A stretch of 64,000 nt of DNA from positions 8,017-72,016 of IMG/VR virus record IMGVR_UViG_3300026130_000003; one strand, 5' to 3'. Position numbers and translations under genes: made by a program. How positions within the stretch are numbered: position 1 is the first letter of the stretch; every line of letters begins with the position of its first letter. Source of the DNA: a virus. A model generated the notes under the pieces. It saw only the letters and a list, made by a program, of their open reading frames with translations. It had not been told where the DNA came from and ran no database searches. Positions 4,641 through 58,759 of this stretch are shown one piece after another.

Positions 4641-4651
4641 TCAGTATATCC

Positions 4652-19900: not shown

Positions 19901-22900
19901 TTCACTTAGACGAACTACGTCCCAATCACGCACTTGGTCAAATTGAACCCATGCTAAATCACCTTCATCTATATCATCAGAACTTAAGTCTTCTAGTTGC
20001 TGCTGGGTGAATACTTTGTAGTCCACATAACGGTCATCAACATAGCCTGAAGTCTTAACAGAGGCAGTTGATCGTTTGCCTGTCTGAACCATAGGATATT
20101 CTGTATTGTCAAACGTCACCACTAAAGGCTCAGATACCATATTTTTAGGATCAACCGATACTGATACAACTTGTCTAGCATCGTTTACTCCGTACTCGGC
20201 TTCTTTGATAGCCCATACATCACCATGTTCAACTTCGTCAATGTTAGAATTTTTGTTTACTAACAAATTAACACTTTGATTCGTGCCTTTGTGGGCAATA
20301 AATCCTTTGTAGAATTCCATTTGTGACTCAGGTTCTACGCCATGATTCAACAAGTATGTTGACGGAACATAACCCATATGGCTTGCTTTAAGGTTATTGA
20401 TAATCTCTAAGTTTTGGTCTAGAATAGTATCACGGTATTTTTCTGTATCAGCAACCAGTGTTTCAAAGTTAGGAATTAGTTTCTGTTCCGAAATGATGTA
20501 ACCGTCTGCTGTCATTGTACCATCCCAGCCTACTGTTCTGTTACAGTCAATAAGAACACGTAAATTCCTGTTATGCATTAACGGATCGTAAATCACATCG
20601 CCGTAACTATCTTCGCGGTCTATTACCATAGCATGTTCAATTTCTATAATATCCATTGCCATACCGTAGATAGGTGTATTAGATGCCCAAGATAGTTCAC
20701 CATCAGTCGTTAAGAATTGAATTTGATTAAGTGAAATTCTGCTACCATTTTGATCAACTACACGATAGAAACCTTGACGGTAATCACGGGTAGCACTTGC
20801 CACACCGAACGGAGTAGTAAACGAACCAGTTGACAACATAGGAGTTAAAGAAATAAATTCGCCCATGTCATGTTGTTGTTCACTCCAATCTAAGAACTTT
20901 TTCAACAAGTATTCGAAATCGATTAGATTACCATCAGCATCACGGTCAGTAAAGTCCCAACCTATCAGTTTGCTATATTCTTGGTAACCAATTAATAGAT
21001 GTGCAACTTGTTGCAATGTTAAAATATCACCGTAGTTGTAAGTTGTCACTGAATCAGTACGTAAGTTATTGTAACCAGTAACGGTAATTTTATTAATACG
21101 TGGCCATTCCCCAAGCATCTTCCAATTACCTGCGTCATCACCAAAGTCTCTACCAGAAGTGTGCGTTTCTAAACAAACATAAGGTTTGTTATTGTACTGA
21201 ATTACTTCGTCTTTGCGATAGTAAGTTGTTTCACTCCATGGTTTAAGGTCGGCTTGTTCACCTTCAGTTGCATACACTTTAATACCAGAAGCAGTATCCC
21301 AATCAAGCGCATAGAAACGAGGGTTAGCGTCATCGTACCCATATAATCTGTAACCTACAGTCGAAACTTGAGGTTGCGAAATCATAACCCACGCTGTATA
21401 ATCAAATGTTAGGGACATGTCAATTTCCGCCTGAGTCGGGCTTTCTACTCGGCGTTTGTAGTACTTACCATCACTTGGATTAAGTACAATCATTCCCTTG
21501 TTGTAATCACCAACATTTGCAATATCATATGTTGGGTATTCAGTATCAAGAGAAACTTTTTCTAGTACGACGGCGCTAAAAAACTCAGAACGATTAGGTT
21601 CACCTGCGTGTAAGAATATATCATAATTGTCCGATGGTATTTCGCTGTATCGGCTATTGTTTAGACTTGTGTTTTCACTAAACAATTTAAAATTGTTTAC
21701 AAACCCAGCAAATCTAGTACCCAATTTAAATTCATAATTTTCTAATTCTTGCGTTCTAGCATTCACATCATAACCATTACGGGTACTAAAGAATGATATT
21801 GCTTCTTTAACTGCATTCTCGTATGTTTCAAACGTAGAAAATGGCTGTTGTAGTATCATAGAATTGAATGCTTGGTATGGGTATTCGCTACTACGAATCC
21901 ATGCCATTTCAATCGGAGAACAATCACCAAATTTCCAATTATCAGACAGGTATATAGAATCACGAGTAACATCTATGTCCAAGTTAAGTAGTTCTTGTAT
22001 ACTTTTTAATTCGTTTGAACTTGTTACTGGTATTGGAAGTTGTGCAGTGTATTCAGTTGCAATGTAATCAGTAAGAGCAATCCAGAACGATTCCGATGTA
22101 TAATCACTACCGAAGTTTGTATCAAAGTCGCTAGGTTTATTTGCTAATCCCAACACTGCCCACGGATTATCGAAAATCGTATCAGTACCATAGAGGAACA
22201 GATGTATTCCTCTCCAATGCCCTACGCCAATTTGTGTAAAATTAGAATAGTTCCACGTCTTCCAATCATCAGGATCGTAGTTAGCATTTACTAGTGCATC
22301 TATGTTGTTTTTGTCCATCCATTTCTTGAAGAATGGATACATAATGTAATTTCTTTCGAAAACAGAGTATTCAGGGTTCGACAAACCAAAGTTAGTAAAT
22401 GGTTGATATGTAATAGCACCATTTTCTAAACTAGAAACGTTGTTAAATATTCTACGTTCAAACTCTAATAGAACATCGTCTGTTAAATCATTGAACATCG
22501 GTACTTTAGAACCATCATGTCCTAGTATGAAATTTACAGGAGTATCGTATTCATTGTCGTAAACGATTCTAGGAATATATAGAGGTGCTAATTCTAATCG
22601 TGTCGCACTAGGAGGCATGTACGATTCTGGTTTGTTTGTGTATAGTCTAACTTCAATTGTATCAGAAGAACTAGGTACGTAATCAGGCGAAAATATAATC
22701 TCGTTACCAGTTGCGGAAACTATATAATCTATGTTCAGCATTTTTAATGCCCCGTTAACGTAAACAAACAAGTCCTTATCTTCAACTACATCATTTGCCA
22801 TAGAAGGTAATAGTTGTTCTTGTATGCCGTCAACAACTGAAATAATTCCTTTCTCGTAGTGTACAAATTCAGATCCGAACACTAGCATATCAACGCCTTC

Positions 22901-24445
22901 AAACTGTTTCAATACGGTTGAACGACTAATAGATATTTGATGTAGCACTTCTTCTAGTATTTCAGTAGCCGTCTTGTATTGATTCGCAGGATCTTCTAAT
23001 AGTTTTCTAGTTAATGTAATAACCTTGTTTTTGTAATCATTGTACGCATGAGATAAAAATTCAAACGCTTCAATTGGATTATAATCATTACGTGTAAGAT
23101 AAAAATAACCTTGACGAATATCAACCTCGTGTGTTATCATTACGTTACCTTGATTATTGTAACGAATTTTGTTAGCAGGATCGCCTAGTGTGCGATAATT
23201 GTTGTTACCATTAGGTTCACCAGTTAAACCTGGAATAACGTCAATGATGTTAACAAAATGATCGAAAACTATACTGTATGGCAAATCCACACCAACGTAT
23301 GTTTGATTATCTATATTGAATTCTATAGATGGAGGCAACAGTTGGTAATGGTCTTCGTTTATGTTAGTGATAGTATCTTCGGTGTACAAATCAACATACA
23401 CATATTCACGAGTTGGAAAATCTAAAACAACTGTGTCTCCATTGAGTGAATAATTACCAAACTGTTTAACACCATTGATATAAACATCTATATCATTGAT
23501 ACTATTTGGTGTGAAGTGTAAAGGCAACTCTGTTTTTTCTTCAGCATTATCAAACTGTTCACGGATCTTTCTGAATTTAAATTCACACGGTATAGTTATT
23601 TTGTAGTTTACACCATCCACTCGGATAAAATTGTTAGGAGTTAGAGGAATATTAAATGTATATTCAGACTGATAATCTCCTGCTGTCAACTTAGGTCTTA
23701 GTTGTAGTTCATCATCAAAGGCTGCGAATTCCTCATCGCCGGTATATTCAAATACCGTAGATATACCAACAACGTTGCTTTCTAAATCATAAATTTCAAA
23801 TAACGGCAACTCAAATCCATTGTCAATCTTGTTAAGAGATTGAGTACTTAATTGCATTCTACCGTCAAATTCTATTATTGGTCGTTTCGCTTGTATAATT
23901 AAATCACTGTTCGACTCATTGATAAGATGATTGATATCGTTATGGTGGTACCACGAATTGTTATCAGACCACCAGTTTGAACCTGCTCTGTCCATAGTAA
24001 TATATGTTTTGTATTCAGATCCTGGGATGCTAGGATCAAAACCAGGAAGTACCCAGTAATACATTACCCAGTTAGCAAATTTATCTTTGTCAATTGGTAT
24101 GTTAATAGTTTCGTGTTTTTCAGTAAACAAACGGTGATGGTCATTAATCAACGCGCCTTTGTTGTACATGGCGTTAATTAAGTCATTGTAGAATATTCGG
24201 TCGTTTATAGAATCATTTGAGAATACAGGCTCTAGCGCATAATTTCTACGGTCATAGTTGTATGTTGGGTATGTCACATAGGCGTCATCAAACTTGTAGA
24301 TGCCGCCCTCCTTGCGTCCCACAAAGCCTCGCAATTTTTCAACTTCCCCGTCGGAAAATGCTCGCTCTATAGTCGATTCAAATATTGTTTCCAAGTTCTG
24401 ATTCTTCAGATGGCTTGGTAAAAAGTCGTATATTCTTTTAGTCAT
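13970..24445 (-). CDS. Giant baseplate wedge protein (gp7-like position), 3491 aa
   Basis: Follows the gp6-like gene. N-terminal YDFLPSHL, internal YFNETKPYHVKIR, many Ig-like repeats (YVNG..., DYTVD...ITF). Confidence 0.65.
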   Translation of the reverse strand: MTKRIYDFLPSHLKNQNLETIFESTIERAFSDGEVEKLRGFVGRKEGGIYKFDDAYVTYPTYNYDRRNYALEPVFSNDSINDRIFYNDLINAMYNKGALINDHHRLFTEKHETINIPIDKDKFANWVMYYWVLPGFDPSIPGSEYKTYITMDRAGSNWWSDNNSWYHHNDINHLINESNSDLIIQAKRPIIEFDGRMQLSTQSLNKIDNGFELPLFEIYDLESNVVGISTVFEYTGDEEFAAFDDELQLRPKLTAGDYQSEYTFNIPLTPNNFIRVDGVNYKITIPCEFKFRKIREQFDNAEEKTELPLHFTPNSINDIDVYINGVKQFGNYSLNGDTVVLDFPTREYVYVDLYTEDTITNINEDHYQLLPPSIEFNIDNQTYVGVDLPYSIVFDHFVNIIDVIPGLTGEPNGNNNYRTLGDPANKIRYNNQGNVMITHEVDIRQGYFYLTRNDYNPIEAFEFLSHAYNDYKNKVITLTRKLLEDPANQYKTATEILEEVLHQISISRSTVLKQFEGVDMLVFGSEFVHYEKGIISVVDGIQEQLLPSMANDVVEDKDLFVYVNGALKMLNIDYIVSATGNEIIFSPDYVPSSSDTIEVRLYTNKPESYMPPSATRLELAPLYIPRIVYDNEYDTPVNFILGHDGSKVPMFNDLTDDVLLEFERRIFNNVSSLENGAITYQPFTNFGLSNPEYSVFERNYIMYPFFKKWMDKNNIDALVNANYDPDDWKTWNYSNFTQIGVGHWRGIHLFLYGTDTIFDNPWAVLGLANKPSDFDTNFGSDYTSESFWIALTDYIATEYTAQLPIPVTSSNELKSIQELLNLDIDVTRDSIYLSDNWKFGDCSPIEMAWIRSSEYPYQAFNSMILQQPFSTFETYENAVKEAISFFSTRNGYDVNARTQELENYEFKLGTRFAGFVNNFKLFSENTSLNNSRYSEIPSDNYDIFLHAGEPNRSEFFSAVVLEKVSLDTEYPTYDIANVGDYNKGMIVLNPSDGKYYKRRVESPTQAEIDMSLTFDYTAWVMISQPQVSTVGYRLYGYDDANPRFYALDWDTASGIKVYATEGEQADLKPWSETTYYRKDEVIQYNNKPYVCLETHTSGRDFGDDAGNWKMLGEWPRINKITVTGYNNLRTDSVTTYNYGDILTLQQVAHLLIGYQEYSKLIGWDFTDRDADGNLIDFEYLLKKFLDWSEQQHDMGEFISLTPMLSTGSFTTPFGVASATRDYRQGFYRVVDQNGSRISLNQIQFLTTDGELSWASNTPIYGMAMDIIEIEHAMVIDREDSYGDVIYDPLMHNRNLRVLIDCNRTVGWDGTMTADGYIISEQKLIPNFETLVADTEKYRDTILDQNLEIINNLKASHMGYVPSTYLLNHGVEPESQMEFYKGFIAHKGTNQSVNLLVNKNSNIDEVEHGDVWAIKEAEYGVNDARQVVSVSVDPKNMVSEPLVVTFDNTEYPMVQTGKRSTASVKTSGYVDDRYVDYKVFTQQQLEDLSSDDIDEGDLAWVQFDQVRDWDVVRLSEIAEIGFVGETQDGQLYVILTNKVNTSEPVYLRIVDNGIEPEINSYYYLVEDGVVSSGYKYLVFETNYEPLTVEIDSTTSNSILSPSTEGTGVEAIGSVSFPIFAEGDNLYINGTPVTYTESNAQVQILIEGSRTIPFVKKNDQISIAVRNESGSLLNSTTNITFDGLTVTSVGAFAPSVGESFQIDGVTITIQPASISSIRLTSTATETTNVPNNRTITIDGTTVTVGPVIATATNIPADFTTTQQITINGNVITYDIADYAPANVITPQDIADGINAAGFAVSASINGGGYLVVESDGAYLEMLGSIVGSTGFGFTSSSLYRRTKFEDIASDITSSVTNVTSYTDSSNRLVIESGNPTMTISGNALTILGITAGTYNTIQEPTRSSVVNQINSASITGVTASVVSGNYIEIYKEGPKIQLSNVNTGTLESLGFTGDIEKYGYEQIVENINAVFSNNTAIAEAYFNTSTGVINIVSPNAQVDVTNVSGSALTDLGISPGIYTPPVGGGIVDAYVMRDLINAAGVGVSVSVSSDGRMIFTSDDIAITFDGTSQQILDSIGLVRDYTSAKSDPNFKIMRWKSVRFTPGYNGVNFNEFYTNLGLNSSSYIWADNYTTNRWAVLFRTEEGNVTTVALQSERVDTDLVKRVVTTDGTGNIQRYHIYDPLNGKFQGEIGKHIKFITWEDPAKYEYETSNKDTWYEEHVGEIWWDTNLVRYYRYNDYGDRLGNIDQSFARRNWGRLVPGSQIVIKRWSSATILPDYVTDYNEYTYFDIVKGKTITKYYFWEAFEEDTGNIRVDDIRRMLVNNDTSYKFFPIDGNTIVLTNHKNDFTGDSSVKYDLHYDLVDVKGGLHTEWRLISELLDNAETDVIIDIVKNNLANIEIVDSVAVEMSQGDIDNGFDGIEFTYDFITSADYDTLVITVNNAIVEPNNFVIDGDMVTLNYSSDYVAGDVVRIYKVKPLENNFFYDPFIARRNFASLFDDMFKFTFIDRFAPTRENYITVEDSIFYLKPWAITEEFIEPPKYQYLSRLRSFDMIDLYNQGVISFKVQEDGIDEYFVEFNGNLQIVHRTDSAMGIDFDRAPSGNPQSYYENFTGIQLLEFFTMMEYYATHDMLKEMAIEMINYRMTEEQEATDIVKTSYIDLIFNYRPLAQHAVYQRDSYQDMIDYFNETKPYHVKIRDIESKYTLQDDITASIDDSHHMDIDMYYGWYEVADFVIEEEYTASNPYVIENFMSYFEKSSLVGHEIDIYVEEEHRDYEVHRVEETFVSDGSATISIAANSNVVTQVKIKSGQETTLVLDRDYTVDYNAHTITFVTAPAIDDEITVTRSYEVTQINTIESQYQNDGVSIRHMYKLRPEYYKIVGDDIIFNTEGVREEDMPFDGSYNGKSFLPEIGEHVQLVLRESRYEEYRVDGNADFDTDNEHEGGSLLRVIDEYTSEADGLPEGMMPTHIKESVFNTISDSGSGDILEFQVYDNWGRAFRMIVNGVTTVTDFTGDKLTVADGSIFRNASEQDRVIIAINNGTHTEFMSYKTLDGNVLTINKRAEFTNLYREIASGDTVYVFRDDYNFPQSKSGLTGITLTSNVPSSGSSSSSMDDLQGYLAYVWAVSPSSDVADPTDTNHPNYDIDFKPILDRNINHVWLYDKAPPLPARVDQTGTTTIDIDPDWIYLIGGRNANWTGDEHRIDYEFLDSNDNVVGAARQMFSATFKSRIYHGPDLANLVHSGDTGTYPNVNGYWFIENDALYFRTVPDGNNAYQYDFIQQFSSTPTKLRISNAYAESNYSTTGGAYGSLRIQNAEANQVITQQEDWWVTLDDYASYNTSQYSTDGTVLSINDNGSPSALTLLFNEDRYITYAEVEFRVTNDGIGDAGSLSLNGFLGLNPMRERLVDSQQRPRINGKFVGSKVVIGQWMKLVARRIDSTHMELILKNADTGNIVDLWIDEVSLVPSDRINFSNGDGSSYSGLMETEYRNLVIRYYTI

Positions 24446-24461
24446 TCAATCATTCATCCAA

Positions 24462-27400
24462 TCATTTAGATAGGTTATCTACAATATTAATATCCTTAGA
24501 AGACGTTACCGCCAAGAATATTTCATCTTTCTCACATGTAATACTTAGCACATCTCCTAGTGTACTTGTTTCAAGTTTAGGATTAATCTTAACACTTGAA
24601 ATGTAATCACCCAACTCTGCATGTAGGTATGCGGCTAGTTCTGAGAAATAGAACGTATCGCCAAAGTCCCAGTTAGATAGAGCAAAGTATTCATTAATCT
24701 TAGTCGCAACTGCTGTTTTAGTTTCACTGTTAGTAAACGGTGAACCTTGACGTTTGATTACATCAAAGTATGCCTGATTTTCTGTATCGGCATACTCACC
24801 AAACAAGTACTTAAACTTGACTGGGATATAACTAATGTGGTCTGCAATTGCTGCTTTCGGTTCAATAGACTTCATAATCTTACGTAGTTCATATGCGTTA
24901 GGAGCAGATGGTCTAACACCGTTAAATTGATTAGAAATCCATTCATTAACACGGTTGACATAATCCGTAGACAATACATACATATCAATAATGTTTGAAG
25001 TGTCAATATCAATACGTTTTTCTTTGTCAGCATAGTGATCCCAACGGAAGCCCATTAGATTATCTTCAGCATACGAAATACCTTCAACAACTCGGTACGC
25101 TGTACTGTCTATAACAATTTGTGTTTTATCTGCTGATAGTGTATAATCCTCTGCTGTAAAGTCATTTAATGCAACCCATACACCACCGCGGTTGACGTAC
25201 CAAGAAACTACTGTAGCAGTATTATCCAGTTGTCTTTCCATTTCAACATAGATTAATGAATCTGGATCGATATCGTTATCTTCAGTAGATCCGTAGTCTG
25301 CGTAACCGTATTCGTACACTCGTTCATAGTCTAACCCTGCAACATTGTAACTTTGTAGTATTACATGTTTAGGGAAGTCTACACGTTCATCAAATGATTC
25401 TAAACGGTATTCAACTTTCAAGAAGAATTCACCATCATTTGCAGTAGCGTCAGCCAAATCTACTTGTTGATATGTAAACGTAGTTGCAGTCACATCAGTA
25501 ACTAGCACATAGCCATTGAATGATGTATCTGTGACGTTTTTAACTTGTACATAATCGCCCACGTTTATACCATGTGCGTTTGCTGTAGTAGCAACAGTTA
25601 AACCGCCTGTTCGAACAAGAGAAACAAGTGCGTCATCTCTAGTTAAACGAATAGTAGAAGAATTGAATTCTACATCGGCATTAAACGGCACACTGTCTTT
25701 ATAAATTGTTGTGTCGGCAACTTGGGACCACTGAGTGAATATATTCACTTCGGATAGAATCCACCAGTTGTTGTCTCTCAAATCATAAAATGCTTCTACG
25801 CCATTTGCTTTGTGAATCAATGGCGGTTCAGTTTCTCCGGGTTGGAGAGTATCAACAACCGCATTATTTGTAGTGCTACCATCGGTACTGCTACTAATAA
25901 TAAATGTATTATCTTCATCGTATTCATACACTTTGGCAACAGAGTATCTTTTCTCTATGTCAAAACCATGCATTATGTCTAGCATACCAGTCGGGTTACG
26001 GTCTTTAGAAATAGTTGTCAATTCTACTTTGTGATTGTCTTCATGCCCACTAGGTGTCAAGAATTTATCAGCAATGTATGTTTCAATTTCTTTGAATCGT
26101 TCTGTGTATGTTCTAACTCTATCAGATACAGAAATTGTAGCACTTAGTTTGACATGATAGTTATTTAGGTTGTCAGCAATTGTACCGACCCATGCGGTAA
26201 CTGTTTCTCCTACACCAGGATTTGTTGTCCAATATACTGCGGCATATGTATTAGTAAACAACGCCGTTCGGTCAACAAGTTCTATATGTTCTTGGTCGTA
26301 TACTTCTTTTGATAATGTCATCGTATACAAACTTTCTTCATCTAGTACACGATTCAAGTAATCATTTTCATCATATACAAACTCTATTTCGCCGTATGGT
26401 ACTTGTTTAAAGAATATGTCATATTGATCATTATCTAACAAGTCAATACTAAATGTTGACATTTTAGGTATTGTAAAGACAAATTTCTCGTTTGCAGGAT
26501 CCCAAGTGGTAGAAAACTGCGTCTGTACACCTTTGTCTCCAGGTTGTGCGTCTTCTATTGTGCCAGGCAAATCAGATTCGTCAATCCACATAAACTTGCC
26601 TTCATTGCCTGCGCTGTTAAAATATTCTAACGTAGGCTCACCTTTGAAACCTCGGTCAATCAATTGTTGAGGTGTCGCTTGAATTGTGTAGAATGAAGGG
26701 GTGTTACATGCTGTTAAGTTTTCAACAAGGAAAGACGATGTAGCATTAGTATCAGAAATGTTTATTTCGTCTGAATCTGTTACTGGATATCCTGAAGTAG
26801 GAATATTAATTTCTAGCAAGTCCGAACTTATATCATCAAATACAATATTATCCCAACATACTTGATATTCAGGAGCCTCACCAATCAATGTCCCGTTTCC
26901 TGTCAATTCAAGTTTTTCTAACAAGAACACAGGACCGAATGGTGTAGCGAGTTCATACTTGTAATCGACTTTTTCTACAATTTCAGGACCATTATTAAAT
27001 ACTTCATTCTCAAACATGTTAAAGAATGATGCGTTAGTGATACCATCAGCCAATGCAAAGTCAGCACAAATAGTTGCAAGACCTGTATTTTCGTCTAACG
27101 TGTAATTAATCGGAGCATATGCAATGTTTACCTTATACTCAGTTTTATCTGCACCCAATTCACCTGATAACACACTGCCATCGTTGTAGTTAATAGAAAG
27201 TGTATCACGAGTTGCTAGATTTGTTTCACTGTCAATTACAATGTCTTCGTTGTTGTAGTAAAATTTTACTTGATTAGCACTTTCAAATACTACTTTCTTA
27301 CCAGTGAATGTAATCTCAAACTTAGAAGTATTTTCACGAGTTCCTGGTGCATATGTTACTAAGAATTGTAAGTCTTCGTTTGGATTTGCATCAGAAACAT

Positions 27401-29348
27401 TCCAAGAATAACTTTCCACATCGAAGAACACATAAAAAGATTCTGTACTTTCATCTGTTAGTTTTTCTTCAATAATGTCAATGTCTTGTTCTGAGAACTT
27501 GGTCACTGGTGCTTTAAACAAACGTGAGAAACCAATAACTTCGTTAATATCATTCTTAACCAGTATACGGTCAAGAACTATATCACCATTAATATCAATT
27601 GCTTGTGCTTGGAACCATTCACCGCGCAGTCTTAGGTAGTCACCTGATTCTACAAGTTCATGTATGATTGGATTGATAACACGACCGCGAAGTGGATCTA
27701 ATGCATTTGGTTGCCAGTATTCAGCAAGTAGTTTGTCAAAATCGTACTCACCACGGTATGAATAAAAATAGTTATTCAACATGCTCGGGTGTTTTAATAC
27801 CTGAACAAGTCTATTGGCAATGAAGTTTCTTGCATCACCTACGCCACGCTGGAACAGCATGGACAAATAAATTTCGTCTTCATCCACATACACCGAGCCA
27901 TCAGTGCCTGTTACGTGAATGTTAGAATGGTGTCCGGTAACGTCGGATGCTTCAAAGTATCGTGAATTCCCGGCGAAAGTTGTATTAACTGATTTCAGTT
28001 TAGTGACAATGTTCGTACCTAAGGTGTATGGAAGAATATTATAATCCTGTCCGTTCACCATTCTATCTTGCGCATAATATGCACGAGGTGCTATGCGTCT
28101 AACGCTAGTGTAATTTTCCCCTTCAAAATTTTCTGCGAAATCTCGGGTACTTTCAAGAGTTAGCGTTAATCTATAGGATCTATTATCAGCCCCCCTATAT
28201 GTAATATTTATAGAGGCTTCTTTAATATCATTACTATTAACAGAAAATGCTTCATTTTCTACCTTACGGAACCACACACGGTAACGACCATATGCAGCAT
28301 TACCAAAGATACCGTCTGGGTATTGAATACGAATCTGATTGTTATCTGCTGTATGAATAGATGCCATATCACCATTACCATCACGGAAAATGTTGTATAT
28401 AGCAGTTTCACGAGTATCATTGTCTATAACTTTTACTTCATTAAGAACTTTACCGTTGTCATCTATACGTTGAATCCAAACATCACTGTTAGAAATGTTA
28501 GGTTCAGTAATCACTTCAATGCGATTTGATAGTCTTGAAGTGTAATGGAAATCTCTATATTGTAGGTCTCCTGCTTTAGCATACATAAAGAAACCAGTGC
28601 GGTCACTAGATGGTCCTAGGTTATCACTGCGAGATATAAGTGTAATGTTACGCTCAGGATCAGGCATTGCTTCTACTACATCGTTATCATCAATCTTGGC
28701 ACGAACTGTTTCGAATGTTCTACCTTTACCAGCAACTGTAGAATTGAACGAGTATTTTACAGATTTGGAATCGTTGTCTTCATTGAAAAAGAATAAATCA
28801 GTTTTTACTTGATTAACGAGTGCTGAACCAGCGGGTTGGTCTAGTTTTGTTTCACCGTCCAATGCAGAGTTAAGAACAGTAACAAAGTTATCGTACCATG
28901 ATACATCATTAGGATCGTTCCAACGAATTACACGGTTAGCAAGTGTGTTACCTGTAGAGTCATAAACATCTTCGGTTGTACGAACACTTTTGATTTTCAT
29001 AAAACCACGAGCATTAAGTGGTCGTGTCTTATTGTAGCCTAGAGTGCGAGCCATTCTTAAGATACTTTCTCTGCGTTCTGCTGTATCTAAGAAGTTTTCA
29101 CGGGTATTCATATCCATTCGGAAAGCAAGAGCATGACCAAAGTATGCAACAAGGTCTACTATCGCAACAAATTCTGAACTTGCAATCAAGTCGTTAAATT
29201 TGTCTGGATATGTTTCGGACACGTATGTTAATAGTGCCTCTCTTATATTATCAAAATCGTAAGCCTTAAGACTTACATTGGTGAAAGCGGTATATACTGT
29301 TGTCCAACTTTCGCCCGCAAATAATTTGTCTACTCGTTCTAGCGCCAT
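24462..29348 (-). CDS. gp6: Baseplate wedge subunit, gp6-like, 1628 aa
   Basis: DFDNIREAL...SSEF...RENFLDTAERRESILRMARTLGY, AQDRMVNGQDY, WDFGDTFYFSEL. Confidence 0.8.
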   Translation of the reverse strand: MALERVDKLFAGESWTTVYTAFTNVSLKAYDFDNIREALLTYVSETYPDKFNDLIASSEFVAIVDLVAYFGHALAFRMDMNTRENFLDTAERRESILRMARTLGYNKTRPLNARGFMKIKSVRTTEDVYDSTGNTLANRVIRWNDPNDVSWYDNFVTVLNSALDGETKLDQPAGSALVNQVKTDLFFFNEDNDSKSVKYSFNSTVAGKGRTFETVRAKIDDNDVVEAMPDPERNITLISRSDNLGPSSDRTGFFMYAKAGDLQYRDFHYTSRLSNRIEVITEPNISNSDVWIQRIDDNGKVLNEVKVIDNDTRETAIYNIFRDGNGDMASIHTADNNQIRIQYPDGIFGNAAYGRYRVWFRKVENEAFSVNSNDIKEASINITYRGADNRSYRLTLTLESTRDFAENFEGENYTSVRRIAPRAYYAQDRMVNGQDYNILPYTLGTNIVTKLKSVNTTFAGNSRYFEASDVTGHHSNIHVTGTDGSVYVDEDEIYLSMLFQRGVGDARNFIANRLVQVLKHPSMLNNYFYSYRGEYDFDKLLAEYWQPNALDPLRGRVINPIIHELVESGDYLRLRGEWFQAQAIDINGDIVLDRILVKNDINEVIGFSRLFKAPVTKFSEQDIDIIEEKLTDESTESFYVFFDVESYSWNVSDANPNEDLQFLVTYAPGTRENTSKFEITFTGKKVVFESANQVKFYYNNEDIVIDSETNLATRDTLSINYNDGSVLSGELGADKTEYKVNIAYAPINYTLDENTGLATICADFALADGITNASFFNMFENEVFNNGPEIVEKVDYKYELATPFGPVFLLEKLELTGNGTLIGEAPEYQVCWDNIVFDDISSDLLEINIPTSGYPVTDSDEINISDTNATSSFLVENLTACNTPSFYTIQATPQQLIDRGFKGEPTLEYFNSAGNEGKFMWIDESDLPGTIEDAQPGDKGVQTQFSTTWDPANEKFVFTIPKMSTFSIDLLDNDQYDIFFKQVPYGEIEFVYDENDYLNRVLDEESLYTMTLSKEVYDQEHIELVDRTALFTNTYAAVYWTTNPGVGETVTAWVGTIADNLNNYHVKLSATISVSDRVRTYTERFKEIETYIADKFLTPSGHEDNHKVELTTISKDRNPTGMLDIMHGFDIEKRYSVAKVYEYDEDNTFIISSSTDGSTTNNAVVDTLQPGETEPPLIHKANGVEAFYDLRDNNWWILSEVNIFTQWSQVADTTIYKDSVPFNADVEFNSSTIRLTRDDALVSLVRTGGLTVATTANAHGINVGDYVQVKNVTDTSFNGYVLVTDVTATTFTYQQVDLADATANDGEFFLKVEYRLESFDERVDFPKHVILQSYNVAGLDYERVYEYGYADYGSTEDNDIDPDSLIYVEMERQLDNTATVVSWYVNRGGVWVALNDFTAEDYTLSADKTQIVIDSTAYRVVEGISYAEDNLMGFRWDHYADKEKRIDIDTSNIIDMYVLSTDYVNRVNEWISNQFNGVRPSAPNAYELRKIMKSIEPKAAIADHISYIPVKFKYLFGEYADTENQAYFDVIKRQGSPFTNSETKTAVATKINEYFALSNWDFGDTFYFSELAAYLHAELGDYISSVKINPKLETSTLGDVLSITCEKDEIFLAVTSSKDINIVDNLSK

Positions 29349-40434: not shown

Positions 40435-41448
40435 TTATAGGCTATTGTAGATGTTAATAAGTAGATTCTTATCAAATGTACCATATAGTTCGGAGATTTG
40501 TGTGATAACAATTTCGTCAATTGTTTCGAAATGTATTTCTGCACCCGTGTCTTCCATATGTTCCGTATTTTTAATAGGAACAAGCGAAATGTCACGTAGG
40601 TTGTAAGTCTCCACAAATGTATCCTTGATAAAATTTGCTTCTTCATAACTAATGTCTATGTCCAATGAAACCTTAGCACTAGTCTTAGGAAGAAGATACT
40701 TACCAGGATCTTCTAGTAACGTGCTTAGGTTAATGTTACGATACTTAGGTGCATGAGGCCACGCAAAGAATTCAGGGTCTTCACCCCATTCTATTGTCAT
40801 TAGACCTCGTTCATCATCCCACGAATCACTAAAGTTGTGAGGGAATGCATTGCCTATGTATATGATGTTGTCTTTGATTTGTCGTTTGTGGAAGTGCCCA
40901 GAAAACACATAGTCTTGATGTTTGAACATTCCGCCTTTCAAGCCGCCGTGGTCTGGCATTTCCACCATCGCATTAAGTTTGAATGTAGGAAGTTCAAAAT
41001 GTCCAAACATATACTTAGATTTGATTTTAGGAATTTTCTTCCATTCATCACCTACCAGCCACGGTACAATGGCAACATCACCTTCAACTAGTGTTTCTTC
41101 CACTAGAACAATGTTCGGAAACTCTTTTGCAAATTCAACAGAATTGACTTCTCGGTTTTCACGATAATACAAATCGTGATTGCCTAGAATAAAATAACAC
41201 TTTTCAAAGGCGTCATTGAGTTTACGCAACGCCTCTAAACTAAACTTTAATGTTGATATGTTAAGACTTGCTCGTTGATGGTGCCAGTCACCACAAAAGA
41301 TAAAAGTTTCACAACCTTTATCCTTAGCAGTTTTAATTGACCAATCAACAAAGTCCATACAATCTTGGTTATGTTGCTTAGAGTTGTTGCGGAGACCCCA
41401 GTGTATGTCTGTGAACACTGCTGCCTTTTTGAAAAGATTATCAGTCAT
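40435..41448 (-). CDS. gp47: Recombination endonuclease nuclease subunit (Mre11/SbcD-like)
   Basis: DIH, GD, GNHD, GHF and SGHFH phosphoesterase motifs. Likely start MTDNLFKK at 41448. Confidence 0.93.
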   Translation of the reverse strand: MTDNLFKKAAVFTDIHWGLRNNSKQHNQDCMDFVDWSIKTAKDKGCETFIFCGDWHHQRASLNISTLKFSLEALRKLNDAFEKCYFILGNHDLYYRENREVNSVEFAKEFPNIVLVEETLVEGDVAIVPWLVGDEWKKIPKIKSKYMFGHFELPTFKLNAMVEMPDHGGLKGGMFKHQDYVFSGHFHKRQIKDNIIYIGNAFPHNFSDSWDDERGLMTIEWGEDPEFFAWPHAPKYRNINLSTLLEDPGKYLLPKTSAKVSLDIDISYEEANFIKDTFVETYNLRDISLVPIKNTEHMEDTGAEIHFETIDEIVITQISELYGTFDKNLLINIYNSL

Positions 41449-42337
41449 CTTCCGAGTATATCTCTTTGATAGTTTCTGTTGGGATTTCATCATCCGTTAT
41501 TGTTGTGTTCTTCACTCGTTGCCAACGCTCATGCGCTTGTAACTCATGTTCTAGTTGTCGTGTCCAACTAGGTGCTTGACCTATACTTTCTAATAGATCG
41601 TCTCGCAAACCTTGATTCTTTTTCTCATTGTTTAGTACACGAGTAAAAGAGTTGTTCACAACAGCAGTATAGTATGCAAACGGGTTATCTGATTTATCTT
41701 CGCTAAACTGTAGACCAATTTGCGCAAGTTGAAGCAATGCTTGACCGCGCATTTCATCTACATAAGTGTAGCCACGCCAGTTAGAACGTTGGGAAAATCG
41801 TTCAACCAGTTTGATATACATATTCGCTAGTGTAGCAGTAATCTTACCGTGAGTCAAGTCAAATTCTTTGTTGCTGTTATAATGTGAAATACCTACACAT
41901 ACAGCCTCACCATCTTTCAAGATGTAATGCTTGAATGGCGGGAAATTCAACTTCGCTTTGTAATCTCGAGGATGTTTTGGATTACGCTTACGTCCTGGTT
42001 CATCAGGAATGTGCTCAAACGTCATTACACGGAATACGATTTCATCATCTTCAAATGTATTGGCATCTACCACAAAGTCAACTTTTTTCTTAGACTTGTC
42101 AGTGTTTAAATCCCAATCAAGTGTTTGTAAACGTTCTGCTTTGTTTTGTTTTGCTTCATCTAAACGCTTTTTCATTTCATCTAAAACGTTTAGATCACCC
42201 TCTTCGTTGTTAATAATTAAATCAAACTGATGGTACTTTTCTCTGTCTTCGAACCAACAGTGGTTCGATTTTGATATATGGATTTGCTTGAGCATATCCT
42301 TATTGTTTAGGTAGTTAGGACCTCTTCTTTGAGACAT
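41441..42337 (-). CDS. gp55: Late-transcription sigma factor (gp55-like)
   Basis: NYLNNKD, NWRGYTYVDEM, F...KSDNPFAYYT...NSF...EKK. Adjacent to gp47/gp46 as in T4-like phages. Confidence 0.8.
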   Translation of the reverse strand: MSQRRGPNYLNNKDMLKQIHISKSNHCWFEDREKYHQFDLIINNEEGDLNVLDEMKKRLDEAKQNKAERLQTLDWDLNTDKSKKKVDFVVDANTFEDDEIVFRVMTFEHIPDEPGRKRNPKHPRDYKAKLNFPPFKHYILKDGEAVCVGISHYNSNKEFDLTHGKITATLANMYIKLVERFSQRSNWRGYTYVDEMRGQALLQLAQIGLQFSEDKSDNPFAYYTAVVNNSFTRVLNNEKKNQGLRDDLLESIGQAPSWTRQLEHELQAHERWQRVKNTTITDDEIPTETIKEIYSEDD

Positions 42338-48005: not shown

Positions 48006-48239
48006 CTATATAATAGGCGTACCAGCCTTCTTGCTCATTTCAAAATTGTTCTCTATTATAGAGTTCAAGTGTTTGATATGAGTTACAGGCATTTCGTGGA
48101 TTTCAGAAATAGAAACCCCTCCACGCATGTACCAAGTTAATTGTAACAGGTTATAGTGTAACTTGTCAACCTGTTTTTCGTATTTTTCAATACGCTCCTG
48201 TATATCTTCCGTGCTGGCTGTTACGAGCCAGCGATGGAA
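48006..48239 (-). CDS. 77-aa -1-frame extension of the 48221..49072 gene (G-T-type tail assembly chaperone extension)
   Basis: Frame FHRWLVTASTEDIQERIEKYEKQVDKLHYNLLQLTWYMRGGVSISEIHEMPVTHIKHLNSIIENNFEMSKKAGTPII* is entered at slippery site A_AAT_TTT. No good start or RBS of its own near its 5' end. Confidence 0.7.
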   Translation of the reverse strand, partial: FHRWLVTASTEDIQERIEKYEKQVDKLHYNLLQLTWYMRGGVSISEIHEMPVTHIKHLNSIIENNFEMSKKAGTPII

Positions 48240-49072
48240 AAATTTATAGGATTTACCTCAATATTCACTTCGTCTACATTCCCGCATTCTGGGCATGTGA
48301 ACTTTAACAAGTTTGAATCATCAGGCTTCTTAGATAATTGTACAGCAATTTGGTTGATCTTGTCAACTACTTTTCCGGGAATATTGAACATAAATTCGTC
48401 AATAAATGCCTTGTCAGTCACTATTTCACCATCTTCGGTTTCTATTTTGTAGATTGCTTCTGTTAGAAGACTAACATTGTGTTGTACAATCTTATTGAAA
48501 CTTTGGTAAAATCGTTTTGCAAGTTCCATGTCACCATCTGGATCTTCGTCCGATACACTGCTTTCAATTTCTAGTAAAATCTTTTTACGCTCTATATCCA
48601 TAAGACTCAAACGAGTTACACTTTCAACTGTTGCAGGTGAGATATAAATTTTTATACCCTCATGTTCAACAACAGGTATCTCTTTAATATCCGGAAACCT
48701 ATTCATAAGTTGATTCAAATCAACTTTGTAATCTGTCACTGCGTCACATTCTGTACATTGATGCGTGTGCTCTATGTCCTTTCCGGAACTGGCATACTGT
48801 ATTGCTAGGAACAATGACTCCGCATCTATGTTACATAGTTTTCTTGGATTTGGAATCGAAGGCACACAACTTTTGATGACATTGATGAGAGCCTCACCGT
48901 TTAACAAAGCATCTGGATTCTGTAATGATATTTCATCTAGCGCAGTCATTGGTAAAATTGGCACTTCATCCAATATGGTCTTATCAATCTCTGGATTGAA
49001 TAAACCATTGGTTGGCAATGTAACGTACATTGCAGGTTTTCTGAAATACTTACTCAGTGGGTTGTTTGACAT
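48221..49072 (-). CDS. Baseplate hub assembly / tail assembly chaperone (gp26/gp51-like)
   Basis: YVTLPT, PMTALDE, LAIQYAS, two CxxC pairs (CTEC, CPEC). Divergent from the tape-measure-like gene. Confidence 0.7.
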   Translation of the reverse strand: MSNNPLSKYFRKPAMYVTLPTNGLFNPEIDKTILDEVPILPMTALDEISLQNPDALLNGEALINVIKSCVPSIPNPRKLCNIDAESLFLAIQYASSGKDIEHTHQCTECDAVTDYKVDLNQLMNRFPDIKEIPVVEHEGIKIYISPATVESVTRLSLMDIERKKILLEIESSVSDEDPDGDMELAKRFYQSFNKIVQHNVSLLTEAIYKIETEDGEIVTDKAFIDEFMFNIPGKVVDKINQIAVQLSKKPDDSNLLKFTCPECGNVDEVNIEVNPINFSIAGS

Positions 49073-49087
49073 TGATTTTTCCTAATT

Positions 49088-49134
49088 GATAAATACATTG
49101 TAAGCCGTAGTACGGCGTAGCGTTTCTATTTATA
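49088..49134. promoter_or_regulatory. Face-to-face late promoters (plus GATAAATA 49088-49095; minus TATAAATA 49127-49134) flanking the palindrome GCCGTA-G-TACGGC
   Basis: Motifs read directly. Confidence 0.55.
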
Positions 49135-49169: not shown

Positions 49170-51305
49170 ATGTCAGAATTTGATGGAGTAATTAAGGGGT
49201 TTGGAAAAGCGGGTCAGTTCCCTGGATGGGCGACCGACAAAGCAATGTTGTCTGTAGAGAAAGCAGTATCAAGGCAAGACAAACACTTTATGAACATTTC
49301 CAAACTGTTAATCCAGATTGCCAGAGGTGACAAAATAACACAAGGGCAATACAAATCCATGATGGATGAATTGCGTGGGATGCGCAGAGAGGATGAAAAG
49401 GCTCGCAAGCAAAATAAGCAGCAAAATGAGGATAATCAGAAGGATGACAGTAAATTTCAAAAAGAAAACATTTTCACACTGAAATTCTTGGGCGATATTA
49501 TGAAGAAACAACTAGACGCCCAAAAAGAAGGTATAAAAAGTGCAGAAGACCTGAACAAGCGTGTAGAAGAGTTAATCAAACAAGGTCATAGTGAAGCATC
49601 TGCAATGCGATTAGCAACAGCAGAAGACATGGGCGGTAAAATTGACTTTATTAAAGGTGTGGGCGGTAAGTTCGCCGCAGGTTTAACTGCTGTAGTAGGC
49701 ACAATAGCAGCCGCAGACTCGTTTATTATGGAAAACATTAATGAGCGATTAGATTTTTCTAGTGAAATAAGACAGTCAGGTCTGATGGTTGGTTTAGAAG
49801 ATGCTGAAGGTACCCTATCTGAATTTTCTTATGCTGTGAACAAATCAGGATTCTTGATGGGCGAAGCGGCAGCATTTGCGGACAAGTACTCAGAAGCAAT
49901 TGGCAGTCTGGGTATGTTAGATTCATTGAAATTAGTCAAAGACTTTGCATATGGATTGGATGGATCGTTAAATCTAATGAAAGAGTATGCTATGACATTC
50001 GGTCAAACTACTGTTATGACAGGTGAATACTTAGAAACTCTTAAGAACTTAGGCGCGTTAAACCAAATGAGTGAATCGCAACTAAGACAAGGTATGAACA
50101 ATTTCATGGATGCTGTTTCAGATACATCCAAGGTACTAAAAATATCAATGGAAGAATCAGCCGCTTTGATTAAAGAGACACTTGACGAAGATAGAACAAA
50201 GGTATCTTTGGGTATGATGGCAGCCAAAGGTGTTCCTATGGAACAAGTACAGGCTCTAAGTGATGCGATTAGTTCATCTACTATGTTCGGCGCAGGATCA
50301 GAAATGGGTAAAATGTTACAAACTCGTTTAGTAGCAGGAGATAGAGCACAATTCTTGGCTACCGAAGAAGGTAGAGCAATGATGGACAACCCTATCACTG
50401 CTAAACTATTTGAAACGATAGACCGCCTAGCCGTATCATATGAGTCAACTGGTGATCCTGATGCATTGAAAAACGCAATGTCTGAACTTGATGTGTCTTC
50501 TATTTTGGGTAACATGTCAGAAGTTGATAGACAACTATTGATGCGCGGTGAAGGCGGGGTGTCAGGTACACTGCTATCAGAATTAATGTCTATGTCAGAT
50601 AGATTTGACCAAATAGGTCAGGAAGCCCCACAAGTAACTGAAGAAGATTATCAAGCGGCATATTCACAAGATATGAGAAGTCGTAGATTAGGTCTAACAT
50701 TGGAACAGTCTATATCCGCAGGCTTGACAAAGGCGAACTTGGGAGAGAACTTAAAAGATTTGAACCAAGGTATGAATAAATTATTGACTGAACTTCAACC
50801 TAAAATGGATGCGTTGGCAGAAGCAATTGGTGGTAAGTTAGTAGGAGCGATTACTGGATTGCAGGCAACAATCACTGACTTTGCAGGTGATATGCTACGA
50901 GAATCTAATGCACAATCATTGATAGATGCCGATGACGGAAATACAAATGATGCCATAGGATACAATCCTAGTGAAAGTCGTATGTACGATTATTTTGTCA
51001 ATGATGCTGCAGGCGCCGCATTATGGGATATGAAGTCAGGTTTGTTGGCACAGTCAGGACTTGGAAATAAAGAAGCATACTTCAATGATGATTCCGCTAG
51101 AATGTTTGTAGACAGTCTTAAAATGCAAAGGGACAACATGAATTTATCTGATTCTGATTTTAAAGATGTTCTTACTCGACTACTAAAAGAAGCAAACAGT
51201 AATAAGATGGCGGTATCCGCAAATGCGCGTGATGCGACAAATGCACAGGAAACACAATTCCTTATTAATCGAATTAACGAATTGATAAAAACACTCAACG
51301 GATAG
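49170..51305 (+). CDS. Tape-measure-like protein
   Basis: 711 aa, rich in Ala/Gly/Met/Leu and helical throughout, with a hydrophobic stretch (FAAGLTAVVGTIAAA). Adjacent to the chaperone gene. Confidence 0.55.
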   Translation: MSEFDGVIKGFGKAGQFPGWATDKAMLSVEKAVSRQDKHFMNISKLLIQIARGDKITQGQYKSMMDELRGMRREDEKARKQNKQQNEDNQKDDSKFQKENIFTLKFLGDIMKKQLDAQKEGIKSAEDLNKRVEELIKQGHSEASAMRLATAEDMGGKIDFIKGVGGKFAAGLTAVVGTIAAADSFIMENINERLDFSSEIRQSGLMVGLEDAEGTLSEFSYAVNKSGFLMGEAAAFADKYSEAIGSLGMLDSLKLVKDFAYGLDGSLNLMKEYAMTFGQTTVMTGEYLETLKNLGALNQMSESQLRQGMNNFMDAVSDTSKVLKISMEESAALIKETLDEDRTKVSLGMMAAKGVPMEQVQALSDAISSSTMFGAGSEMGKMLQTRLVAGDRAQFLATEEGRAMMDNPITAKLFETIDRLAVSYESTGDPDALKNAMSELDVSSILGNMSEVDRQLLMRGEGGVSGTLLSELMSMSDRFDQIGQEAPQVTEEDYQAAYSQDMRSRRLGLTLEQSISAGLTKANLGENLKDLNQGMNKLLTELQPKMDALAEAIGGKLVGAITGLQATITDFAGDMLRESNAQSLIDADDGNTNDAIGYNPSESRMYDYFVNDAAGAALWDMKSGLLAQSGLGNKEAYFNDDSARMFVDSLKMQRDNMNLSDSDFKDVLTRLLKEANSNKMAVSANARDATNAQETQFLINRINELIKTLNG

Positions 51306-56109: not shown

Positions 56110-57267
56110 ATGGAAAATCTTTTTGAAGGAAATAACTGGGATACTACACGCGAAGCCCTACTAGATGGTCTACAAGGCAACAAGCGCGATGTAATGTCTT
56201 CAGTACTAGAAAACACTAAAAAGGCTCTAAACGAGTCTGCTACTGCTGGTGCGACACAAGCAGGTAACATTGCTACACTAAACAAAGTAATTCTACCAGT
56301 TATCCGTCGTGTAATGCCTACAGTAATTGCTAACGAAATCATCGGTGTACAACCAATGACTGGTCCAGTTGGTCAGATCCACACTCTACGTGTACGTTAC
56401 GCTGACAATGCTGGCGCTACAACTGCTGGTTCAGAAGCACTATCTCCATTCGATATTGCTAAAAACTACTCTGGTGACGGCGTAAATGCTCCACTACCAA
56501 CTGCTGCTCTAGAAGGTGCTGCTGGTAACCGCATGTCAATCCAAGTATTGAAGCAAACTGTTGAAGCGAAAACTCGTAAACTAAGTGCTCGCTGGACATT
56601 CGAAGCGGCTCAAGACGCTAACGCAATGCACGGTCTAGATATCGAAGCAGAAATCATGGCTGCTCTAGCAATGGAAATCACTGCTGAAATCGACCAAGAG
56701 ATCCTAGGTTCACTAGAAAATCTAGCAACTACTGGTGCTACTTTCGACATGAACGGTGCGTTCACTGGTACTCCAACATTCGTTGGTGACCGTCACGCAG
56801 TTCTAGCAACTCTAATCAACCAACAAGCAAACCTTGTTGCACAACGTACTCGCCGTGGTGCTGCTAACTGGGCTGTAGTTTCACCTGCTGCTCTAACAGT
56901 TCTACAATCTGCGACTACTTCTGCATTCGCTCGTACTACTGAAGGTACTTTCGAAGCGCCTACTAACACTAAATTCGTTGGTACTCTAAACGGTACTATG
57001 CGTGTTTACGTTAACACTTACGCTTCTGATACTTCTCCAGTACTACTAGGCTACAAAGGTCAAGGCGAAATTGATGCGGCAGCATTCTACTGTCCATATG
57101 TTCCGCTAATGTCTTCTGGCGTTGTAGTAGATCCTGCTACATTCGAACCAGTAGTATCATTCATGACACGTTACGGTTACGTAGAACTAACTAATACTGC
57201 ATCATCTCTAGGTAATGCGGCTGACTACGTTTCTAAGATTGCTGTACAGAACCTAGCGTTTGTATAA
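56110..57267 (+). CDS. gp23: Major capsid protein
   Basis: VIRRVMP...GVQPMTGPVG, VEAKTRKLSARWT, EIDQE, FYCPYVPL, MTRYG. Putative maturation site LNE/S. Confidence 0.96.
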   Translation: MENLFEGNNWDTTREALLDGLQGNKRDVMSSVLENTKKALNESATAGATQAGNIATLNKVILPVIRRVMPTVIANEIIGVQPMTGPVGQIHTLRVRYADNAGATTAGSEALSPFDIAKNYSGDGVNAPLPTAALEGAAGNRMSIQVLKQTVEAKTRKLSARWTFEAAQDANAMHGLDIEAEIMAALAMEITAEIDQEILGSLENLATTGATFDMNGAFTGTPTFVGDRHAVLATLINQQANLVAQRTRRGAANWAVVSPAALTVLQSATTSAFARTTEGTFEAPTNTKFVGTLNGTMRVYVNTYASDTSPVLLGYKGQGEIDAAAFYCPYVPLMSSGVVVDPATFEPVVSFMTRYGYVELTNTASSLGNAADYVSKIAVQNLAFV

Positions 57268-57293: not shown

Positions 57294-57318
57294 ACCCAGG
57301 CTTCGGCCTGGGTTTTTT
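57294..57318 (+). terminator. Intrinsic terminator after MCP
   Basis: ACCCAGG-cUUCGg-CCTGGGT-TTTTT. Confidence 0.9.
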
Positions 57319-58759
57319 ATGGATTGTAAATAAACACTAAGTTCCCACAATCCCAATATCTTTTATAGTTAGCATTGAACATATTTTTTGACTCGCTTAA
57401 TTCAGAATCAAAGGAACTTAACCAATTTTTTAAGTTTGATTTCCTACACTTGTATCTACTAAGTATTTCATTCCCATCAGTCCAATAGTATCCAGGACCT
57501 GTCTCTTTTACCAATTCAAATCCCATAGAATAATAACCATTGCCATTAGACTTGCTACGGTCACAATAACTTATTATAGGTTGATTTACTATGTTATGCA
57601 AGTGTTTAATTAGTTTACTTGCTCCGCCTACAACGGTAATTCCGCTTTTACTACATAGTCTATGCAATTCTATTGAGTCATCTTTGGTGAATCTATTTTT
57701 GCCAGCCGATATTAGCATAACTAAGTCATCACCTTTATATAAACCGAAATAATACTTACTGCCTAATGCTCCCTGTATGTGATAACGATCCATAAAATTC
57801 AATGCTGTTTTTGTGTCAACCGATTGTATTGTCGTATTTCTAGCATATATTTTATCGTTTTTGCCTAGTTTGCTTCTTATAATAGATTTCACAATATCCT
57901 TTTTGTGTGTCCATTCATAATCGGTAATGTGTATTAAATCAATGCCTTTTTCCTTTGCCTCTAAAGTCTTATCGATATGTCTACTACGATTTTCAATGTG
58001 TTGGGTTTCAGGATTATAACTATGCCAATACAAACCATTGACTTCAATGGCGAAATTATGTGATGGAACTAATATATCTAATTCTTTGGTTTTTAGTGTT
58101 TCCCAGTCTGAATGTACTGCTTTTACCCTTAAGATTGTGGTTATATATTCGTATATCTCTTTTTCTGTAAGGGAACGATTGTAATTTTGTTGAATCTCAA
58201 ATCCATGCTGCCTACAATAATCAAGTACTGTACCATAGTATATCTTAAGGTCTTTGGCTATTTCAAAACCTGATTTGTTATCAGTTATATATTCTTTCTC
58301 TAACCAATTTTTGTTTGATAGTTTTTCATGTACATGATCTGGTATCTTTGGTTTCTTCCATATGTGTTTGATATCCGAGCGTTGCGAATTGTACTCGACT
58401 CCATATTTTTCAACCATCGTGGCTTTTCGCTTTTGATTGGCTTTTATTTTTTCTTCTTTTGATGCGTTATGTTTTGTGTGACTTACCTTTTCAGAAAGGG
58501 TATCTCTAGTACATTCACATACATTTGCAGGCCCGCAGTTTTTGTAACCGTTGGATATTCTTGATACTTCTCGTTTATTTCCATTTACGCAAATATTAGT
58601 CTTGCCGTCATTGATTGCGCTGTAAATATGCGTAGGAAAATGCTCACTGTCTGCTTTCGATTGCGACATGACCCAATCATACATTGCCGGATCTTTCTTA
58701 ATCATCATGGCGTAATGTTTGGGTTTGTCGTGTATTAAGTCTAATATTTTTTGTTTCAT
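57317..58759 (-). CDS. Hef-like free-standing homing endonuclease (Vsr/DUF559-type nuclease plus C-terminal domain)
   Basis: KYGVEY repeat, ELDI...AIEVNGLYWHS, HITDYEW, IYAR, HIQG, GGASKL, SYCD, WDCG. Convergent with MCP and AT-rich. Confidence 0.75.
   Translation of the reverse strand: MKQKILDLIHDKPKHYAMMIKKDPAMYDWVMSQSKADSEHFPTHIYSAINDGKTNICVNGNKREVSRISNGYKNCGPANVCECTRDTLSEKVSHTKHNASKEEKIKANQKRKATMVEKYGVEYNSQRSDIKHIWKKPKIPDHVHEKLSNKNWLEKEYITDNKSGFEIAKDLKIYYGTVLDYCRQHGFEIQQNYNRSLTEKEIYEYITTILRVKAVHSDWETLKTKELDILVPSHNFAIEVNGLYWHSYNPETQHIENRSRHIDKTLEAKEKGIDLIHITDYEWTHKKDIVKSIIRSKLGKNDKIYARNTTIQSVDTKTALNFMDRYHIQGALGSKYYFGLYKGDDLVMLISAGKNRFTKDDSIELHRLCSKSGITVVGGASKLIKHLHNIVNQPIISYCDRSKSNGNGYYSMGFELVKETGPGYYWTDGNEILSRYKCRKSNLKNWLSSFDSELSESKNMFNANYKRYWDCGNLVFIYNP

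Follow-up and report, generated by a model that had tools for sequence, protein, structure and literature searches.

The gene described here lies on the minus strand of a 64,000-nt stretch of DNA (hereafter, the window) from an uncultured freshwater giant phage, where its open reading frame, as listed and translated, runs from an ATG at 49072 to a TAA stop codon at 48223-48221 (CDS 48221..49072). The 283-aa product matches the Pfam family PF12322 (T4_baseplate) with 62.3 bits against a cut-off of 24.5 (E 6.9e-17; 60.6 bits when the gene was searched within the window's own record) and the family phrog_150, baseplate hub (E 2.9e-22). By the curated cut-off of PF12322 it is a member of the T4 gp26/gp51 family, a T4 gp26-like or TAC-N-like protein, which bears out the assignment to T4-type hub genes made in an earlier sequence-only reading of this DNA. 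Four cysteines conserved in the gp26-like family, C106, C109, C260 and C263, form two CxxC pairs that are invariant in eight of eight sequences and conserved to at least 90% in a set of 24, and the pairs are recognisable in T4 gp26 (CTC...CPEC) and gp51 (CPKC...CC). This pattern suggests a zinc site in the gp26-like protein; no mention of a zinc site in gp26 or gp51 was found in the passages of the literature available to us.

The closest cultured phages are Phosso, Atu_ph07, the RaK2 group, PA5oct and CBB, each at ~30% identity (94 records), and no phage record was matched by the locus in a blastn search. Since the record that contains the window is a 72-kb fragment with a rated completeness of 20% and relatives of the locus are found on contigs of up to 343 kb, the earlier description of the source as a jumbo lineage is fair. 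Other T4-type genes present in the window encode a portal protein gp20, a prohead protease, a major head protein, a baseplate wedge protein, a gp5-like hub/lysozyme and a gp55-like late sigma factor (41441-42337). A gene for a 480-aa HNH/homing endonuclease (57317-58759, minus strand; phrog_3339, E 1.7e-97) immediately follows that of the major head protein (56110-57267) and has the opposite orientation. Further away, a 3491-aa virion structural protein (phrog_10938; 13970-24445) adjoins a 1628-aa baseplate wedge protein (phrog_10646; 24462-29348), both on the minus strand and both very large even among giant phages, and at 3408-6040 (minus strand) a UDP-glucose dehydrogenase-like protein (phrog_9148, E 5e-99) adjoins a radical SAM protein; the latter two may represent auxiliary metabolic or DNA/sugar modification genes.

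The gp26-like gene has a PDDEXK nuclease as its downstream neighbour, while on its other side a divergent gene on the plus strand (49170..51305) encodes a 711-aa protein, predicted to be all-helical, which synteny and an AF2 model make a candidate tape measure. Its position is kept in 10 of 10 relatives (L006-L015) as well as in Phosso, RaK2 and PA5oct, not in Atu_ph07, and a note in the RaK2 record calls the counterpart tape-measure-like. The AF2 model consists of long helices (pLDDT 39.9). A comparison with T4 gp29 gave a BLASTP E of 0.007 and an hhalign probability of 0.4%, that is, no profile similarity; tblastn against phages and NCBIfam returned no match, Pfam a sub-threshold match only, and a word-based homologue search just two proteins. 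The divergent arrangement claimed earlier for this neighbour is thus correct, but the comparison with gp29 does not uphold its identification as a tape measure. A motif search pointed to a possible T4-type late promoter, TATAAATA (49127..49134, minus strand), 55 nt upstream of the ATG of the gp26-like gene, by comparison with the T4-type late consensus; at 6 occurrences in the window against 7.5 expected, the motif is not enriched there and is a lead only.

The end of the gp26-like gene carries the elements of a -1 frameshift cassette, all on the minus strand. A slippery heptamer, A_AAU_UUU (48239..48245), in phase with the zero frame set by the ATG at 49072, is followed by a 6-nt spacer, UCCAUC (48233..48238), and by a putative stimulatory hairpin (48213..48232), in which a 7-bp stem, GCUGGCU/AGCCAGC (48232-48226 and 48219-48213), encloses the loop CGUAAC (48225-48220) holding the zero-frame UAA. 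The 7-bp stem after 6 nt agrees with the usual mark of a -1 cassette, a stimulatory structure that begins 5-9 nt past the heptamer. In the identical IMG/VR copy of the locus (L017), the 40-nt window after the heptamer folds with -12.6 kcal/mol, within the lowest 2% of the windows of its own gene. From one stop codon to the next, the -1 frame spans 83 codons (48257..48006), of which the 77 after the slip constitute the extension (48006..48239), from UUC at 48239-48237 to 48009, followed by the stop codon UAG at 48008-48006. A trans-frame product would comprise residues 1-278 of the zero frame plus 77 residues, giving 355 aa with the junction ...NPINFFHR. On re-reading, every coordinate and length that the sequence-only reading had given for the heptamer, the spacer, the hairpin with the stop in its loop, the 283-aa and 355-aa products and the junction proved correct. 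An SD-like GAGG located 10 nt before the heptamer was considered as a further stimulator and rejected as a conserved element, being absent in relatives.

Homopolymer runs are error-prone, and the overlap of the two frames might be explained by an indel that sequencing or assembly introduced into the T run, or by a gene in decay. However, the 1201 bases of the locus showed 0 differences and 0 gaps in contigs from three DNA runs (depth 14-32), which are possibly the source samples and hence not independent, and one IMG/VR contig contains an identical copy. An indel would, moreover, have to be matched by the same -1 shift in all of the 128 distinct relatives described below, and we regard the chance that this explanation is right as negligible.

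The comparison with relatives was based on 164 loci, four of them from isolate records and 160 from IMG/VR, fetched with two protein alignments; 11 loci (L005-L015, mostly contigs that were fetched again in the larger set) and the T4 locus (L016) were omitted from the counts. The frame of the tail, assigned by profiles of the N-domain and of the tail, was -1 in 157 loci, the same as that of the upstream ORF in 7 and +1 in none. Removal of identical junctions left 128 distinct -1 loci, and every one of them has an in-phase X_XXY_YYZ heptamer within the overlap of the two frames, as opposed to ~7 of 128 expected by chance from the rate in upstream coding sequence (188 in 36,207 codons). The two heptamers actually in use occupy 6 of these 36,207 upstream in-phase positions. 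Of the 128 loci, 102 have U_UUU_UUC and the other 26 have A_AAU_UUU as their sole poly-T heptamer; both heptamers fall in the class H_HH.U_UU.Y, which the available part of a study in E. coli ranks among the most efficient (Sharma et al. 2014, PMC4066793). The zero-frame stop codon follows within 3-36 nt of the heptamer in all 128 loci, and the -1 tail has a median length of 76 codons. At the junctions of the 7 in-frame loci, a single F is encoded and no slippery run is found.

The RNA downstream of the heptamer was assessed in a 40-nt window beginning 4 nt after it, with windows of the same genes as controls. Its mean MFE was -9.8 kcal/mol, compared with -4.0 kcal/mol in the same-gene windows, and in 67% of the loci it belonged to the lowest tenth of its own gene. 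A stem with an MFE of -7 or lower that starts 4-7 nt past the heptamer was detected in 89 of 128 loci versus 703 of 8760 control windows (8%), leaving ~30% of the loci outside this hairpin criterion. The first paired base lies 6 nt past the heptamer in 58 of 128 loci and at 4-7 nt in 109 of 128, 4 nt being the minimum by construction. Different clades have different stems at the same spacing, namely GCUGG/CCAGC, GGAUCU/AGAUCC, GGCUUCU/AGAAGCU and GCCGCCUCUU/AAGAGGUGGC. One locus (L047) keeps CCAGC in a different codon phase. Taken together, the frame counts, the presence of a heptamer in 128 of 128 loci where ~7 would be expected and the enrichment of stems mean that the signal is neither a product of chance nor an assembly error.

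In the clade of the window, all 17 members carry an unchanged GCUGG/CCAGC core, synonymous sites included. Such invariance fits selection acting on the RNA. No covariation is seen in this clade, where the five core pairs never vary (score 0.070, reached by 125 of 500 shuffles, vs 0.065). In one U_UUU_UUC subgroup, comprising 24 cassettes that were pre-selected for stable folds and compared on a structure taken from one of them, 7 of 12 pairs have changed on both sides, with a covariation score of 0.222 vs 0.173 in shuffles (5 of 500 reach it). RNAalifold applied to these 24 cassettes did not recover the hairpin. The alternative that it returned, in which the U run pairs weakly with purine-rich sequence further downstream, showed no compensatory change and was set aside.

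The conserved element being a run of T, the long form could also arise by transcriptional slippage, with RNA polymerase adding or dropping a base in the run and no shift of the ribosome involved. RNA polymerase slippage usually needs runs longer than T5 or T6, however, and the run is only T5 in the window and T6 in most relatives. Nor does transcriptional slippage need either the X_XXY_YYZ phase kept in 128 of 128 loci or the stem placed at 4-7 nt in 89 of them. The "other mechanism" of the 2022 paper on these genes (see below), which might be taken for it, consists of two separate genes according to the accessible text of a citing paper (PMC10274946). We therefore consider slippage of the polymerase improbable and a -1 shift of the ribosome by far the better account of the cassette.

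At the protein level, a profile built from 50 tails (alignment A2) matched 635 proteins at E <= 1e-3 among 1.84 billion representatives. Among the best 150 of these 635 matches, 20 are in-frame proteins, 319-351 aa in length, that end in the tail, and the other 130 measure 44-167 aa; these short ones, two of which were fetched, look like gene miscalls on the -1 ORF. All 7 of the long in-frame forms that were scanned match PF12322. Conservation of the tail extends from the slip-site FF to the C-end, with W37, M39, R40, N66, E68 and K71 conserved to at least 90% (A2). The tail alone gave no credible family in Pfam, PHROGs or NCBIfam. For a natural fused form (P0059), AF2 run on a 20-row alignment gave a model with a pLDDT of 87.8 and a pTM of 0.84, in which four helices make up the tail. 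A search of BFVD with this model returned gp26-like baseplate hub proteins; against the PDB, Foldseek found nothing at E <= 0.001 and a wide VIA-align search gave a best Z of 7.2, confined to a helical hairpin, hence no solved relative.

These data also bear on the possibility that the downstream frame is a separate small gene with a start of its own. Small ORFs are indeed annotated there in two isolate records: in Phosso the -1 ORF is called as a separate 76-aa hypothetical protein overlapping the stop, and in Atu_ph07 a 40-aa hypothetical fragment is called within it. In the window, a sigma-70-like hexamer pair (11 of 12 positions, TTGACA-18-TACAAT with TG; 48169-48140, minus strand) is located within the -1 ORF, immediately ahead of the ATG of WYMRGG, and might serve such a gene. 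That ATG, however, is the earliest ATG, GTG or TTG that can be read in the -1 frame, ~43 codons before its end, and the ORF list holds no -1 ORF of at least 50 aa with such a start in the region. Conservation of the protein begins well before it, at the slip-site FF, and natural fusions exist. Promoter-like sites are not enriched in the -1 ORF region either, being fewer than in shuffled sequence (4 vs 6.3). An independently started gene is accordingly very improbable, and the -1 ORF is best read as the extension of the gp26-like frame.

None of the four isolate records, Phosso (L001), Atu_ph07 (L002), RaK2 (L003) and PA5oct (L004), annotates the shift. Where Phosso and Atu_ph07 have the small calls mentioned above, RaK2 leaves 365 nt empty and PA5oct 224 nt. 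An annotation correction is therefore due for the -1 ORFs of RaK2/Atu_ph07-like giant phages.

The 7 loci in which the long form is encoded in a single frame (L097-L100, L104, L106 and L112) share a second feature, a short paralogue arranged in tandem with the long gene and in the same orientation. A second N-domain gene lies next to the first in 7 of 7 in-frame-long loci (6 distinct) versus 1 of 158 other loci. The one exception, L163, has the tandem paralogue and retains the -1 cassette, and may be an intermediate between the shift and the gene-pair solutions. In T4 itself, gp26 (208 aa) and gp51 (249 aa) both match PF12322 over the whole model (215.6 and 177.5 bits), gp51 having ~48 extra C-terminal residues relative to gp26, and the C-end of the short T4 form, ...KEFFELL, falls where the slip-site FF is. 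In its distal half, the tail has a weak collinear match to the C-end of the gp51 family (hhalign of A2 vs A4, E 3.1e-4, probability 39%); the tail profile found no match in the whole T4 genome. The precomputed Pfam assignments list PF28602 beside PF12322 for nearly all gp51 homologues (P0157-P0248), and this family, which was not returned in the scan of T4 gp51, is possibly a curated model for the C-terminal tail of gp51.

Since the in-frame loci keep a short paralogue in 7 of 7 cases, much as T4 keeps genes 26 and 51, the frameshift and the gene pair are interchangeable routes to two proteins, one short and one lengthened by a C-terminal tail; the window would provide these as proteins of 283 and 355 aa. 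The shift and the two genes are almost never found in the same lineage, which speaks for a need for both isoforms. One may suppose, on the other hand, that the shift is nearly complete and that the 355-aa form is the sole functional product, the 283-aa form being a by-product. In-frame long genes do occur in nature, and the fused form is modelled as one compact unit (pTM 0.84), as such a scheme would have it. It is nevertheless at odds with the short paralogue that stands beside the long gene in every in-frame-long locus, with the retention of both gene 26 and gene 51 in T4, and with a zero-frame stop kept 3-36 nt past the heptamer in 128 of 128 loci. We consider it unlikely that the long form acts alone; the production of both forms remains the preferred reading.

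Overall, the claim of a programmed -1 frameshift in a gp26/gp51-family gene is strongly supported by comparison. Among the checks that the sequence-only reading had named for it, those for conservation in orthologues and for an indel in the T run have been carried out: all 128 loci have the heptamer and 89 of them the stem, against 8% of controls, the -1 tail is conserved as protein, and 1201 bases agree, with 0 differences and 0 gaps, in the contigs of three runs, possibly the source samples. The logic that it had likened to lambda G/GT is supported as well, in that a short and a long form are made either by a shift or by a gene pair. As for its proposal that the product is a frameshifting tail assembly chaperone, the comparison sustains the frameshift, while the chaperone role of both forms is inferred from the literature.

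The following course of events is envisaged. Standard decoding would end at the UAA at 48223-48221 and yield the 283-aa short form. A fraction of the ribosomes would pause at the hairpin (48232-48213) with tRNA-Asn and tRNA-Phe on A_AAU_UUU (48245-48239), slip back by one base and read on to the UAG at 48008-48006, producing a 355-aa form with a helical tail of 77 residues (WYMRGG ... SKKAGTPII). The two forms would be supplied at a set ratio for hub/tail assembly and would, like lambda G/GT, work as chaperones that are not part of the virion, as equivalents of T4 gp26 (short) and gp51 (long). Judging from the sequence comparisons, we hold it to be very probable that a programmed -1 shift on A_AAU_UUU yields the 283-aa and 355-aa forms of this gp26/gp51-family protein, both of which would be needed in a set ratio as hub/tail chaperones.

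A more specific and decidedly tentative suggestion concerns what the tail does. The AF2 model, in which the fused form is one compact unit (pTM 0.84), is the ground for proposing that the 77-residue tail might fold back on the gp26-like body, so that the shift would set the ratio between an open short form and a capped long form of a zinc-binding hub chaperone. We think this rather unlikely as it stands. On such a scheme the tail would be no tube-binding adaptor of the lambda gpT kind, and the logic would differ from that of G/GT. Three routes would have led to the same end: the -1 shift, on either of two different heptamers, the tandem gene pairs, and the divergent genes 26 and 51 of T4.

Part of this has been anticipated. 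Leiman et al. 2010 (PMC3004832, Table 2) give both gp26 and gp51 as chaperones of hub assembly, and Vladimirov, Gautam and Davidson (Virology 2022, 566:9-15) reportedly named the two as the tail assembly chaperones (TAC-N/TAC-NC) of T4-like phages. The accessible passages of papers citing the 2022 work describe poly-T sequences as known -1 signals in the TAC-N genes of T4-like phages (PMC12846349) and, in some T4-like phages, a short gene plus a longer fusion gene instead of frameshifting (PMC10274946). The sequence-only reading knew of no such frameshifting for T4 genes 26 and 51, a view that is out of date in the light of these passages. The cassette of the window is a further case of the published gp26/gp51 frameshift, with A_AAU_UUU as a second heptamer. 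A literature search, in which the 2022 paper was considered via the papers citing it, returned no report of a gp26 frameshift in RaK2-like giant phages within the passages available, and the word "frameshift" occurs 0 times in the PA5oct paper; the RaK2-like giant-phage lineage may be new to the literature in this respect. The present results extend the chaperone frameshift to RaK2/Atu_ph07-like giant phages. Shift lineages and two-gene lineages set side by side amount to a natural experiment; the principle of the frameshift itself has already been published.

Among systems outside the T4 family, the obvious counterpart is the gpG/gpGT pair of lambda, which the window resembles in that both forms are presumably needed for tail assembly. 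Xu, Hendrix and Duda reportedly described, in 2004, a -1 frameshift conserved in tail assembly chaperone genes. In chaperones of the lambda type, the tape measure is bound by the short part and the tube protein by the tail, and neither form is found in virions. Unlike the small helical protein of lambda, the short form in the window is a 283-aa protein with a four-Cys site, and no relation to lambda G in sequence or fold was seen. None of the Phage_TAC families is found among its Pfam, PHROG and NCBIfam matches, and Foldseek and VIA-align gave no PDB match, with the proviso that a distant relation can escape such lists. The placement is also different: whereas G/GT in lambda comes after the tube gene and immediately precedes the tape measure gene in the same orientation, the gene in the window is divergent from its 711-aa neighbour.

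As a cassette, the site in the window compares with those of E. coli dnaX and of IS3/IS911-type elements, with which it shares a heptamer, a spacer of ~6 nt and a downstream stem-loop. The heptamer of those cassettes is A_AAA_AAG, that of the window is U-rich, and the SD-like GAGG upstream of it in the window is not conserved in relatives.

The closest system is that of T4 gp26/gp51, which belongs to the same family (PF12322) and likewise consists of a short form and a tailed long form. T4 encodes these by two divergent genes, has no frameshift and makes, in addition, the internal-start product 26', whereas the window has one gene and a -1 shift; the tail is 77 residues long in the window as compared with ~48 in T4 gp51. 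With regard to frameshifting members of the family, the window differs in its heptamer, A_AAU_UUU in place of U_UUU_UUC, and in its lineage, that of the RaK2/Atu_ph07-like giant phages.
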